Origin: Eledone cirrhosa
Lineage: Eukaryota
NCBI GenBank assembly: GCA_964016885.1
Contig: OZ024759.1
Coordinates: 7,502,001-7,566,000, forward strand
Direction of reading: 5' to 3'
Length of the DNA stretch: 64,000 nt
Below the pieces are notes generated by a model. It worked only from the letters and a program-made list of their open reading frames with translations, was not told the DNA's origin and did not search any database. Position 1 is the first letter of the stretch. Every line of letters begins with the position of its first letter. Position numbers and translations under genes: made by a program. Shown here piece after piece: positions 18,015-31,823 of this stretch.

Positions 18015-18620
18015 TTTGTTTTGCGAGGTTTTTTATATGAAATCGTGTGTCGAAACAAATATTGTTATACTTGGGGAGGGTCATATTGTTGTAATATTGC
18101 CAGAAATAATAACAGAACACACTCACTGTTTGGTTGGTTTTCGCTTCTGTATCTTTTATATCTCCACAGTTAACTCATTTGGTCCTCAATGTTTATCATT
18201 GACTGACCAACGGTCAAAAATACAGATATAATATAGATATAAACACACATATATATAGTCTAACAAAGTTCTTTCGTTGCACATCTGCAACATCATCAGT
18301 GGTACTATTATGTTCCTCCTGTTGTATTGTATGTCTACGCCATTTTGCAGATGTGCAACGAAAGAACTTTGTTAGACTATATATATATGTGTTTATATCT
18401 ATATTATATCTGTATTTTTGACCTTTGGTCAGTCAATGATAAACATTAAGGACCAAATGAGTTAACTGTGGAGATATAAAAGGTACAGAAGCGAAAACCA
18501 ACCAAACAGTGAGTGTGTTCTGTTATTATTTCTGGCAATATTACAACAATATGACCCTCCCCAAGTATAACAATATTTGTTTCGACACACGATTTCATAT
18601 AAAAAACCTCGCAAAACAAA
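18015..18620. mobile_element. Foldback element, 276-bp inverted arms with 54-bp spacer, in a TA run
   Basis: 18015-18290 is the reverse complement of 18345-18620 with about 4 mismatches by eye. Confidence 0.93.
18255..18308 (-). ncRNA. Type-I hammerhead-ribozyme-like motif
   Basis: Minus strand: atagtacca CTGATGA t GTTGCA gatg TGCAAC GAAA gaactt|tgttagactat; perfect 6-bp stem II, minimal stem III, imperfect stem I. Confidence 0.6.
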
Positions 18621-19665
18621 TATATATATATAACAAGGAAAAAAACAAGGAAGTTTTGTTTACATATAAAAGATATTTACGCACGTTTGACAGAGGATTG
18701 GGTGAAGGTCACCCATAGGACATATGGACCCAACTCCAGTATCAATCTGCTCCTAGTGATGTGACAAAAAATATATATATTTTAAACCAAACTTCCTCAA
18801 GCATTTAGTTAACTTAGGAAGCATTGGAAAATTTGAAATTTAAAAATATAGTTTCCATAACTATCGACATCAATAACAAATAGTTGATGTTGATAAATAA
18901 TAGTTAAATAAAGTTTGCAAAGTACCCCTAGGAGTTGGTTGAAAAGATAGAGAGACTGGTGGGGAAACAAACAATTCGTCTCTCAGAATCATCTCTCTCT
19001 CTCTCTCTCTCCACTTTTCTTCCCAATTTCCAGGAGTATTTAACCCAACTCATTCGACTTTTATTTGTAGTTATCTGTATTTTGGCGACTGTATTTCCAA
19101 ATTTCTATATAGTTGTACTTTCTGATGGTGATACGACCATTCAGGGCACAGCTTTATCAATGAATGAATTATTTGATTAATTAAATTGTTTGTCCAATAT
19201 TCTCAACATACTCATTGCACAGTTTACCTACACTTGTAATATATATATATATATATATATATATATATATATATATATATATATATGTGGGTGTGTATAT
19301 ATGTATAGTTATATACATATATATAGAGTGTGTGTGGGTGTGTATATATGTATAGTTATATACATATATATAGAGTGTGTGTGGGTGTGTATATATGTAT
19401 AGTTATATACATATATATACAGTGTGTGTATATATATATATATATACATACATATAAATCAGAACACTGGCGATTCAGTTTGGATCTAGCTTTTGAAACG
19501 GCAAGAGCTCAGCTGTTGGTGTCCTGAATTGTTCATATATATATATATATGTGTGTCTATATATATATATATGTGTGTGTGTGTATATATATATGTGTGT
19601 GTGTGTTTAACTCTCCAACCACTCTTATCCACCCCACCACTTCCGTCCGTCTCTTTTAGAATATC

Positions 19666-20370
19666 ACCACTCTACCTACCCCACACCACTCTACCTACCC
19701 CACACCACTCTACCTACCCCACACCACTCTACCTACCCCACACCACTCTACCTACCCCACACCACTCTACCTACCCCACACCACTCTACCTACCCCACAC
19801 CACTCTATCTACCCTCTACCTACCCCACACCACTCTATCTACCCCACACCACTCTATCTACCCCACACCACTCTACCTACCCCACACCACTCTATCTACC
19901 CTCTACCTACCCCACACCACTCTACCTACCCCACACCACTCTACCTACCCCACACCACTCTACCTACCCCACACCACTCTATCTACCCCACACCACTCTA
20001 TCTACCCCACACCACTCTACCTACCCCACACCACTCTATCTACCCTCTACCTACCCCACCTCACTCTACCTACCCCACACCACTCTATCTACCCTCTACC
20101 TACCCCACCTCACTCTACCTACCCCACACCACTCTATCTACCCTCTACCTACCCCACCTCACTCTACCTACCCCACACCACTCTATCTACCCTCTACCTA
20201 CCACACCACTCTATCTACCCTCTATCTACCCCACACCACTCTATCTACCCTCTACCTACCCCACACCACTCTACCTACCCTCTACCTACCCCACACCACT
20301 CTACCTACCCCACCTCACTCTATCTACCCTCTATCTACCCTCTACCTACCCCACACCACTCTATCTACCC
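19666..20370. repeat. ~20-bp C-rich minisatellite
   Basis: ccccacaccactctacctac and variants. Confidence 0.93.
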
Positions 20371-20371
20371 C

Positions 20372-20660
20372 AGTAAAGTACCAGTAATGCACTGGGATCA
20401 ATTTATTCCACTTTCCCCTCCCCCAAAATTGCTGGCCTTGTGCCTATAGAAACCATTATTATAAGTGGAGTGGCGGTAAAGGTGGAAGGTCGGACGCCAT
20501 GCTTTGGAGCATAGAGTTACGGCCCTTTACACTATGAGTTCAAATCCCGCCGAGGTTAACTTTACCTTTCATCCTTACGAGGTTGATAAAATAAAGTACC
20601 AGTAATGTAGTGGGGTCGATTTAAGCGACTCCCCCCCCCCAATTACTGGCCTCTTGGGCC
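20372..20660 (+). mobile_element. Second SINE family: 3' fragment followed by a full copy
   Basis: taaagtaccagtaatgcactggg...ctggccttgtgcc (20372-20460), then head, B-box and central block (20465-20660). Confidence 0.8.
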
Positions 20661-21823
20661 CCCCACTCACATCCCCTGTACCCCCCCCCCCCAATATACC
20701 TATGTCTCTTAACAGTTGTAGTAATTTCACATTATTTCTTTCTTAGGAAAGGCATGAAAGCCCTCACATCTCCCCACCACCACCATCTTACTTTGTCAAT
20801 CAGTCGTCTGTGTTCAACCCCAGGTTAGCTGTAAGCCAATAGAGATCTATGATGACCAAAGTGTAGCCCAATCTAGTCCAGTCCAGCCATGACCCTCTCA
20901 GATATTCATGCATATGTGTATCTCCGATTCTCCCCAAGTCATTGATCAGTCCTGCTTTTTTAAAGACACTTGTGTATGATTTTAGGGTCATTTGGCTGCT
21001 ATTTCTAGCTAGCATGGTGGCCATATCAATGTAAACTGTTGGCATCAGTTACTATGACAACACACACACACACATATATATATATATATATACACACACA
21101 CACACACACACACACACATATATATATATATATATATACACACACACACACACATACACACACATATATATATATATATACACACACACACACACATACA
21201 CACACATATATATATATATATATATATAGATATATATTATGGAATACTGTTGGCTTCTTGCTACAATAATTTCTATACTTTTCATTTATATATATATATA
21301 TATACACACATATATATATATATACACACACACACATATATATATACACACACACACACATATATATATATACACACACACACACACACACACATATATA
21401 TATATACACACACACACACACACACACACATATATATATATATATATATATACACACACACACACACACACACACACACATATATAAAGCTATGTATATA
21501 TATATATGCAGAGGTTATATTTAATTTGTTGGGATTCAACAAGCTTAAACATTTATATATATATATATATATATATATATGTATATATATTTATGTGTGT
21601 GTGTATATATATATATATATACATATATATATATACACACACACACAAAAAAAAATATATATATATATATACACAAATATATATATATATGCAGAGGTTA
21701 TATTTAATTTGTTGGGATTCAACAAGCTTAAAAATGTTTATAACTGATATAGAGCACTCAACAGTTTAGTGGAGTAAATATTCATTATATTAATAAATGG
21801 AAACTATATTGATAAATCCATAT

Positions 21824-21889
21824 TATTTTATTATATATATTTCAAGGGAAACCAAGGCAAATTATGGTGCACTTTCATCAGATAAAATA
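21824..21889 (-). ncRNA. Type-I hammerhead ribozyme motif (left, minus strand)
   Basis: tattttat CTGATGA aagtgcacc..ggtttccctt GAAA tatatata|ataaaata; 8-bp stem I. Confidence 0.65.
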
Positions 21890-29980: not shown

Positions 29981-30212
29981 ATAGAGGAGGAAAGAGATGT
30001 TTCAGTGAGAGGGGGGTAGAGAAGATACTACTACTGTATGTTAAACCCTTCCTCCTCCCAAAACAAGGCAACAACTTATTTGTTTTTTACGTTCTTCATT
30101 CTGTAGAGAAATAGAGAGAGGGGAGTGGGAGAGAGAGAGGAGGTATTAGGAGAGAGAAAGAGAAAGAAAGCAGAAAAATGATAGCATAATTCAATAACTT
30201 TTATTATTTATT

Positions 30213-30672
30213 TGTGGATTGGCAGTATCGGTAGAGGGTCGGACGCAATGTTAGGGCGGTGGATTGGCAGTATCGGTAGAGGGTCGGACGCCATGTTAGG
30301 GCGGTGGATTGGCAGTATCGGTAGAGGGTCGGACACCATGTTAGGGCGGTGGATTGGCAGTATCGGTAGAGGGTCGGACACCATGTTAGGGCGGTGGATT
30401 GGCAGTATCGGTAGAGGGTCGGACACCATGTTAGGGTGGTGGATTGGCAGTATCGGTAGAGGGTCGGACGCCATGTTAGGGCGGTGGATTGGCAGTATCG
30501 GTAGAGGGTCGGACGCCATGCTTTGACACATAGTTACGTCCCTTTACGATCTGAGTTCAAATCCCACCGAGGTTGACTTTGCCTTTCATCCTTACGGGAT
30601 CGATAAAATAAAGTACCAGTAATATACTAGGTAATTGCTGGCCTTGTGCCTAAAGTAGAAACAATTATTTAT
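30213..30672 (+). mobile_element. Second-family SINE with its 45-bp head tandemly amplified 7 times
   Basis: (gggcggtggattggcagtatcggtagagggtcggacgccatgtta) x7, then B-box, central block and tail. Confidence 0.9.
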
Positions 30673-30841
30673 TTTTTAAACACTTCTTAACTAATCCCTT
30701 TCTTAACGTTACTCCTCTCTCTCCCTCTTTCACAAAAGTTGTAATGAGACCCTGCGTGTGTGTATCACCGTACTTAAGTTAGAGACATATATATGTTTGT
30801 CTGTAATATCGTTAATTTTAGAGAGAGGAAAAAGTTGAAGA

Positions 30842-31358
30842 ACACACACACACATATCTAATCTAAGAACGGTGACACAAACACACACACACATATCTAA
30901 CCTAAGAACGGTGACACAAACACACACACACATATCTAATCTAAGAACGGTGACACAAACACACACACACATATCTAACCTAAGAACGGTGACACAAACA
31001 CACACACACATATCTAACCTAAGAACGGTGACACAAACACACACACACATATCTAATCTAAGAACGGTGACACAAACACACACACACATATCTAACCTAA
31101 GAACGGTGACACAAACACACACACACATATCTAACATAAGAACGGTGACACAAACACACACACACATATCTAACCTAAGAACGGTGACACAAACACACAC
31201 ACACATATCTAACCTAAGAACGGTGACACAAACACACACACACATATCTAACCTAAGAACGGTGACACAAACACACACACACATATCTAACATAAGAACG
31301 GTGACACAAACACACACACACATATCTAACCTAAGAACGGTGACACAAACACACACAT
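30842..31358. repeat. 39-bp minisatellite (about 13 copies)
   Basis: acacacacacacatatctaacctaagaacggtgacacaa repeated. Confidence 0.93.
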
Positions 31359-31449
31359 ATATATATGTGTGTGTAGACATTCTTCAACTTTTCCGCTCTC
31401 TAAAGTTAATGATATATATTACAAACAAACCCTGGGAAAATCCATGTAA

Positions 31450-31823
31450 TTGTGTTGCAAGGGTTTTCATATGAAATCATGTGTTGAAACACATATTGTT
31501 ATATTTGGGGAGGGTCATGTTGTCCAAAATAGTAATAAAACACACCCACTATTTGGTTTGGTTTTCACTTCAGTTCAGTATATCGATATATTTTTATAAA
31601 TAATTTAGCTGGCCCCCCAAAAACAAGAAAACGTTATAGAAACACAATGGGAGGAAATCATTGAAGATGTCACAGAAAAAATGTGTGACGAAGGAACTTT
31701 GAGAAATTATATCTATATTTATAGGTTTAACGGTTGGTTAATCAATGATAATCATTGATTGTCAGCTAAATTATTATTTTCGCAATATTAGGACAATATG
31801 ACCCTACCCAAATATAACAATAC
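31450..31823. mobile_element. Old relative of the 18-kb foldback element with decayed hammerhead motif (31658-31702, +)
   Basis: catatgaaatcatgtgttgaaacacatattgttatatttggggagggtcat matches about 18030-18085; inverted atgaccctacccaaatataacaata near 31800; tca TTGAAGA t GTCACA..TGTGAC GAAG gaactt|tga. Confidence 0.7.

Follow-up and report, generated by a model that had tools for sequence, protein, structure and literature searches.

Hammerhead-bearing foldbacks in Eledone cirrhosa are probably head-to-head ends of Penelope-like elements, with one hammerhead unit likely copied in trans

We analysed a 64-kb stretch of the 3.0-Gb Eledone cirrhosa assembly (GCA_964016885.1, contig OZ024759.1, positions 7,502,001-7,566,000; hereafter the window), which holds four foldback insertions with hammerhead ribozyme motifs, here named E1-E4. 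E1, E2 and E4 are very probably head-to-head, 5′-truncated ends of endonuclease-bearing Penelope-like elements (PLEs), and E3 a hammerhead unit without a detected gene.

Four foldbacks from three sequence families

All four foldbacks of the original prediction, with their inverted arms, are present; with revised boundaries they span 18016-18619 (E1), 21691-22062 (E2), 28161-28663 (E3) and 31444-31822 (E4). The inverted repeats are 98% alike in E1 (18003-18293/18342-18632) and 86% alike in E3 (28251-28340/28554-28642), and in E4 they cover just 35 bp with 91% likeness (31494-31528/31788-31822); that of E2 was initially detected at 21805-22064. E1 and E4 are 79% alike, and the absence of cross-matches among E1/E4, E2 and E3 indicates three unrelated families (A, E1 and E4; B, E2; C, E3), in agreement with the proposed minimum of three. 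The arms, whose outer ends fall at a proximal or a distal fixed site, carry open reading frame (ORF) starts, tails and pseudo-long terminal repeats (pLTRs) as follows:

18016-18346, minus strand: E1 left arm, family A PLE 3′ end (pLTR plus 43-nt tail), distal-site end followed by (AT)n
18342-18619, plus strand: E1 right arm, inverted copy, begins within the hammerhead core, distal-site end
18551-18619, plus strand: first 23 codons of the family A ORF in E1, by match to P0002; also on the minus-strand arm from 18084
21691-21930, minus strand: E2 left arm, family B pLTR plus ~90-nt tail, distal-site end in (AT)n, core at 21881
21940-22062, plus strand: E2 right arm, hammerhead at 21979-22041 (core 21987), ends 18-30 nt before the proximal site, at a long TA run
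28161-28542, minus strand: E3 long arm, one family C unit with an internal TA/TG run and a ~42-nt tail, distal-site end
28554-28663, plus strand: E3 short inverted arm, proximal-site end
31444-31822, plus strand: E4 foldback, family A sister; left arm with distal-site end, right arm with proximal-site end, decayed core at 31661

Other parts of the original prediction required revision. The arms had been described as lacking ORFs, but the beginning of a PLE ORF is present in each arm of E1 and in E4's left arm (tblastn of the family A protein P0002; E = 2e-13, 7e-13 and 2e-6). Cores reading from the centre outward were confirmed in both arms of E2 and in E1 and E3, although E1 has only one intact core and the E4 core is decayed at two core positions. 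Three of the four foldbacks were said to end in TA/CA runs; the left-arm end of E1 and both arm ends of E2 do lie at AT/TA runs, but in E3 the TA/TG (CA/TA) run is internal to an element that spans about 28161-28663. The left arm of E2 continues to 21691, beyond its first description, and E4, taken for a local insertion, is a passenger in a Helitron.

Family A arms are the 3′ ends of a PLE

The E1 search returned 3,531 first-look candidates, of which 40 were scored; here and below, the copies examined are top-scoring matches among thousands and not a random sample. In copies that extend upstream, the arm continues into endonuclease-coding sequence (L034, L036 and L038), or reverse transcriptase (RT) pieces lie in the inverted part. 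A search with the family A protein gave 34,203 candidates with open frames of up to 1,249 residues, several of them in head-to-head pairs, and a family A arm lies immediately behind an ORF with RT and GIY-YIG domains in 30 of 30 loci selected for the ORF. At L240 the order is inverted truncated copy, pLTR, ORF, pLTR; the ORF (P0002, L240:2537-6187) is a 1217-residue open frame that starts within the arm, and its first 23 codons are those found in E1, with one difference. For comparison, Arkhipova et al. (2013, PMC3846280) describe, in the passages we draw on, a pLTR plus tail that covers the first 22 codons.

P0002 combines an aspartate motif of the RT with a CX4CX2C linker and, at the C terminus, a GIY-YIG domain. 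Its Pfam support is weak, with an RVT_1 match below the cut-off (E = 7e-4); its Atlas neighbours score 0.97, and several carry GIY-YIG or RVT_1. Family A is very probably an endonuclease-positive (EN+) PLE, with RT and GIY-YIG in a single ORF and a pLTR that includes a type I hammerhead and the ORF start. By the criteria of PMC8557442 its ORF appears to be of Neptune/Nematis type, clades that the linker before the endonuclease does not separate. It shares with these types the C-terminal GIY-YIG with CCHH-type residues and the CX4CX2C linker, and differs in being only 20% identical to the other linker-bearing family found here. P0002 also has a long asparagine-rich insert in its N-terminal half, a feature that text of PMC3846280 reports for rotifer PLEs. 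No RNA source was listed for the family A stretch.

E4 is a PLE insertion multiplied by a Helitron

In about 22 of 40 scored copies the likeness to E4 extends over most of the foldback, with a fixed junction, and at first sight these copies resemble a miniature inverted-repeat transposable element (MITE). Both E4 flanks are common to 20 of 29 loci and belong to a carrier of ~3.4 kb:

29798-34103, plus strand: non-autonomous Helitron carrying E4, interrupted by other repeats

A PDB search of related copies matched the carrier remnant to Helraiser (E = 6.5e-22). Besides this RepHel remnant, the carrier has a fixed 5′ end, at 29798 in the window, and related copies (L298-L303) have a 3′ hairpin end with CTAG, terminal motifs that we take to be those of Helitrons. 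The 3′ end was not found within the window, and Pfam returned no Helitron family on the window and related pieces. A ~13-bp direct repeat, a target duplication, frames E4 in other copies and is partly deleted here. Given the flanks common to 20 of 29 loci, the Helraiser match and the ~13-bp repeat, E4 is one old PLE insertion that was multiplied by the Helitron.

Family B is linked to a Hydra-like ORF

At one locus an inverted ORF piece is attached to a B-type arm, and a search with that piece yielded 64,133 candidates. In 23 of 25 loci the ORF is followed, at a distance of 1.3-1.45 kb, by a sister arm that is 73-81% like E2; when five B loci were extended upstream, an ORF running into the arm was seen in none. 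The linked ORF carries the motif set given for Hydra in the portions of PMC8557442 cited here (RWR for RWK, DKT, CxCX5C, CxxC and CxH), and family B further resembles that clade in its short ORF, TA insertions and hammerhead. E2 is therefore probably a relative of a Hydra-clade PLE, a placement made by motifs rather than by a reference-sequence tree and through an ORF tied to a sister subfamily of E2. The inner ends of B arms cluster 95-145 nt before the predicted cut, where the query biases one side but few copies extend beyond, a pattern that points to a short template RNA. Adjoining E2, at 21507-21555 of the window, TA sequence contains 43 bp of the distal end of family B.

Outer ends pair one proximal with one distal site

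The proximal and distal sites are spaced 43 nt apart in family A, ~90 nt in B, ~42 nt in C and 32 nt in C′, a sister family of C; some family A arms that continue ~13 nt further into the ORF start were placed in the distal class. Head-to-head pairs had one end of each kind in 37 of 38 classified pairs of family A and in all 28 of family B (65 of 66 overall; p = 1e-10 and 4e-9, respectively, against 50:50). Left out of these counts were 15 Helitron-borne E4 copies from 33 'far' family A pairs, along with one A and three B pairs in which one end could not be classed; the query for A was biased towards distal ends, and that for B contained neither end. Whereas the outer ends are fixed, inner junctions differ between copies, and the longer inner arm may be proximal- or distal-ended, by tens of bases to kilobases. 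TA adjoined fixed-site ends in 83 of 106 cases in family A and 66 of 90 in family B, compared with a background of 7.5% of random positions in the same loci. L068, with arms 87% alike and TA between them, is the one candidate for a chimeric pair from two RNAs.

Families A and B thus have the inverted 5′-truncated copy with a tail at one end that Craig et al. (2021, PMC8557442), in the text drawn on here, describe for PLEs along with a TA bias. With EN+ PLEs as described in parts of PMC8557442 and PMC3846280, these insertions share the inverted truncated copy, pLTR, one-sided tail, ORF start within the pLTR and microsatellite targets, as well as the asparagine-rich insert in the family A ORF (PMC3846280). 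They differ in that the family B tail measures ~90 nt compared with the 30-40 bp described there, and in that pairing was counted here (65 of 66) where those passages place the tail 'often at one end'.

Families C and C′ are apparently gene-less hammerhead units

The family C search gave 3,617 candidates. The unit is ~400 bp, and no ORF was found in the top matches read; in read-through copies the tail leads into the unit's own start rather than into an ORF, as seen by a lenient motif test in 18 of 26 loci that lack a Helitron 3′ flank. Sister family C′ (2,016 candidates) has a period of 438-440 bp in 7 of 9 measured repeats, and its inversion junctions differ, with one shared 3′ flank among 25 loci. 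Inverted C′ pairs, classed by hand, had one end of each kind in 10 of 12 cases. Scripted classing of 16 C pairs was mostly unclear because of long internal microsatellites: 4 were clearly proximal/distal, 10 were unclassified and 2 were 'distal/distal' on short AT-rich matches.

Like the animal non-LTR (long terminal repeat) retrozymes in the sections drawn on of PMC7229834 and bioRxiv 10.64898/2026.07.22.740005, C and C′ are gene-less 150-450-bp head-to-tail units with a type I hammerhead, gene absence being judged from top matches only. They differ from them in occurring as copies of 1.1-1.5 units that have inverted arms and a tail. None of 60 C and none of 25 C′ loci contained a tandem of complete cores, so that C, although it behaves like an active retrozyme, falls outside the preprint's definition of one. 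Both sources propose PLEs as the movers of retrozymes, and in the parts cited they argue from shared features, co-occurrence and phylogeny; in the main texts, 'inverted' is absent from PMC7229834, whereas in the preprint 'tail' is absent and 'inverted' occurs only in a reference title.

The PLE insertion marks of C and C′ fit retrozyme-like PLE parasites, as judged from sequence, and the E3 unit was likely copied in trans by PLE enzymes. We lean slightly towards a fuller account, in which C and C′ are gene-less hammerhead RNAs of 400-440 nt, circular or in short tandems, that are inserted by PLE enzymes, with the near-strict use of two sites reflecting coordinated priming by two subunits.

C-type arms adjoin reversed pieces of a Neptune-like ORF (P0004) at L086, L179 and L192, a possible sign of a partner enzyme or of two-template insertions. 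A recurrent sequence after the C tail, considered as a partner ORF, proved to be a second Helitron-like repeat, which we presume to be a Helitron from its motifs; it bears a family C insertion (L088, L090, L091, L099, L263, L265 and L270). By their 3′ flank 4 of 30 C loci are Helitron-borne, with two more by the 5′ flank.

Hammerhead cores are conserved and their stems covary

Cores lie at 21987 (plus strand) and 21881 (minus strand) in E2, at 18299 (minus) in E1 and at 28423 (minus) in E3, where the core sits in the single-copy middle of the foldback. The motifs of families A and C have these extents:

18261-18304, minus strand: family A minimal type I hammerhead, core 18299, extra base between positions 9 and 10.1, 6-bp stem II, 2-bp stem III
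28387-28429, minus strand: family C type I hammerhead, core 28423, palindromic stem III

From a consensus model, cleavage in E1 is predicted between 18266 and 18265. A relaxed type I descriptor, tuned after the motifs had been seen, gave 4 matches in 17.5-32.5 kb of the window against a mean of 0.03 in 200 shuffles. The core is retained in 88 of 95, 97 of 101 and 31 of 36 arm matches, overlapping loci being kept in. For family A and its sisters, pairing reaches 98.6% in stem II, where two pairs have changes in both partners, and just 67% in stem I; in family C and its sisters, 92% of cells pair and six pairs are changed on both sides. The rows for both families were chosen by core pattern and are mutually related, so shuffle controls for this covariation do not yield probabilities.

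These motifs share with the type I PLE hammerheads described in sections of Cervera and de la Peña (2014, PMC4209133) the extra base 9/10.1 (family A), a very short and partly palindromic stem III and covariation across families; they differ in the mismatch at the stem II base of C and C′ and in that cleavage is here predicted from sequence. Few inner ends lie at the ribozyme cut: in family A, 3 of 52 arms within 150 nt begin no more than 3 nt from it (~1.2 expected if uniform), and for two family B references the counts were 0 of 30 and 0 of 41. Inner-end positions therefore give no evidence of cutting in vivo.

Proposed two-site priming and competing explanations

In the mechanism we propose, the GIY-YIG domain would nick both strands of an AT-rich target. 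From each nick reverse transcription would be primed, with each strand using a different one of the two fixed sites that lie downstream of the hammerhead in the element RNA. Both complementary DNAs (cDNAs) would stop at variable points and be joined in the middle; should both stop early, a few hundred bases of pLTR would remain on each side, giving a MITE-like insertion. Since the 3′ part of the RNA makes up each arm, the hammerheads would face outward. The same process, acting once within a Helitron, would have produced E4, which was then multiplied by the Helitron. In the passages of PMC11167929 used here, both strands of AT-rich DNA are nicked and extended by a PLE protein, two RNA start sites bound the tail, and the ribozyme cut is dispensable in vitro.

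A foldback DNA transposon or MITE with captured PLE ends, moved into TA by a DDE transposase, would also have long inverted arms and TA flanks, and E4 recurs whole with its fixed junction. We nevertheless give this explanation almost no credence. Arm ends are asymmetric, junctions vary among copies, the same arms continue into RT/GIY-YIG ORFs, and E4 copies share Helitron flanks and a ~13-bp duplication rather than TA. Symmetric terminal inverted repeats with a fixed interior at unrelated sites were not found: E4 is the sole foldback with a fixed interior, which Helitron carriage explains, and hammerheads are conserved. The MITE explanation is thus largely refuted, although no search for a transposase was made. 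A later origin of the palindromes, with template switching during replication turning solo arms into foldbacks, might suit E1, whose arms are 98% alike and both tailed, as later arm-to-arm copying would leave them; such switching would not account for the matching of a proximal with a distal end in 65 of 66 cases, and we consider it highly improbable.

The second arm could instead arise from a single priming event followed by fold-back or self-priming on the cDNA or an antisense template, as in a self-priming model set out in PMC3846280. Palindromic or overlapping centres in several B pairs agree with this, as does the frequency with which B partner arms are nearest neighbours, whereas simple fold-back of one cDNA requires the second arm to be the shorter on its inner side, and here either arm can be longer, by up to kilobases; we judge this origin unlikely. 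A little more weight, within a range we still call doubtful, goes to family C being the stump of an autonomous PLE whose ORF was missed, or spreading as a Helitron passenger or by local duplication. Only top matches were read, some C loci are Helitron-borne by either flank, and tandem full cores were absent from the sampled loci of both families. Entry of the tail into the unit's own start, if by a lenient test, the regular C′ period, the single shared 3′ flank and the differing inversion junctions all speak against it.

Several observations tell against paired PLE ends and two-site priming as we propose them. E1 itself breaks the one-of-each rule, being the sole distal/distal pair among the 38 classified A pairs. 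Among B pairs, 12 of 17 had the partner arm as the closest sequence, against just 7 of 18 for family A, and these counts do not establish one common RNA template. PMC11167929, in the part cited, reports that in vitro the strands did not differ in which start site they used; for this reason we infer strand-coordinated use of the two sites from genomic counts alone. For E2, only the 73-81% sister subfamily, not its own, was linked to an ORF. No parent ORF was found for family C, and the Neptune-like P0004, considered as its parent because it lies beside some C arms, had C behind the ORF in 0 of 12 long loci. Pfam lends the two parent ORFs weak support or none, and a PDB search of P0002 and P0003 gave no match. 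Rfam hammerhead families were absent from three small-window scans (E4 had no scan of its own) and from the 150 of 229 whole-window matches listed, Rfam giving only microRNA-type matches to hairpins and microsatellites; the hammerhead call accordingly rests on other evidence. Energy folding of single motifs did not return the hammerhead fold. The choice of top-scoring copies counts on the same side.

Weighing these points, we retain the PLE interpretation of the original prediction, which is supported by fixed outer ends with variable inner junctions, arms that match the 3′ ends of RT and GIY-YIG elements, and conserved, covarying hammerheads. Its view that the foldbacks look like MITEs without being such holds, and its alternative of a non-autonomous ribozyme-bearing class fits the family of E3 and its sister C′, and not E1, E2 or E4.

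Other repeats in the window and genome

The 3′ region of the Neptune-like P0004 element was read at L184, L186 and L193 (~1.3-1.4 kb behind the ORF in L186 and L193), and L186 contains a hammerhead-like motif whose core, in the single copy read, seems to have U3/A8 instead of C3/G8. Near-identical copies with long open frames are numerous in at least three PLE families, which suggests recent activity; text of PMC13282606 reports active Penelope-like families in an octopus. Within the window, a repeat that terminates in (CAT)n forms inverted pairs at 914-1729 and 60898-63685, with no hammerhead core in the stretches scanned, and large tandem arrays occupy 35892-60425, 2982-7336 and 23139-26756, with units of 33, 99 and 23 bp.

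Implications

The four foldbacks are real but mostly ordinary, since their architecture has already been published, and these families may even appear in the supplement to PMC8557442. As first worded the finding is thus ordinary; what is of specialist use is the labelling of foldbacks, the end-pairing count and families C and C′. Short PLE foldbacks could be mislabelled as MITEs, from which tail asymmetry and an outward hammerhead distinguish them; a literature search on such misclassification returned no paper that was on point by its title. The one-proximal-one-distal count yields a sharp prediction about the second-strand step when a PLE inserts. C and C′ add evidence from insertion sites to the idea that retrozyme-like RNAs use PLE enzymes. 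If they are indeed RNAs inserted by those enzymes, the parasitism of PLEs by retrozymes that has been proposed would have left direct footprints in the genome in the form of their inverted arms, tails and TA targets.

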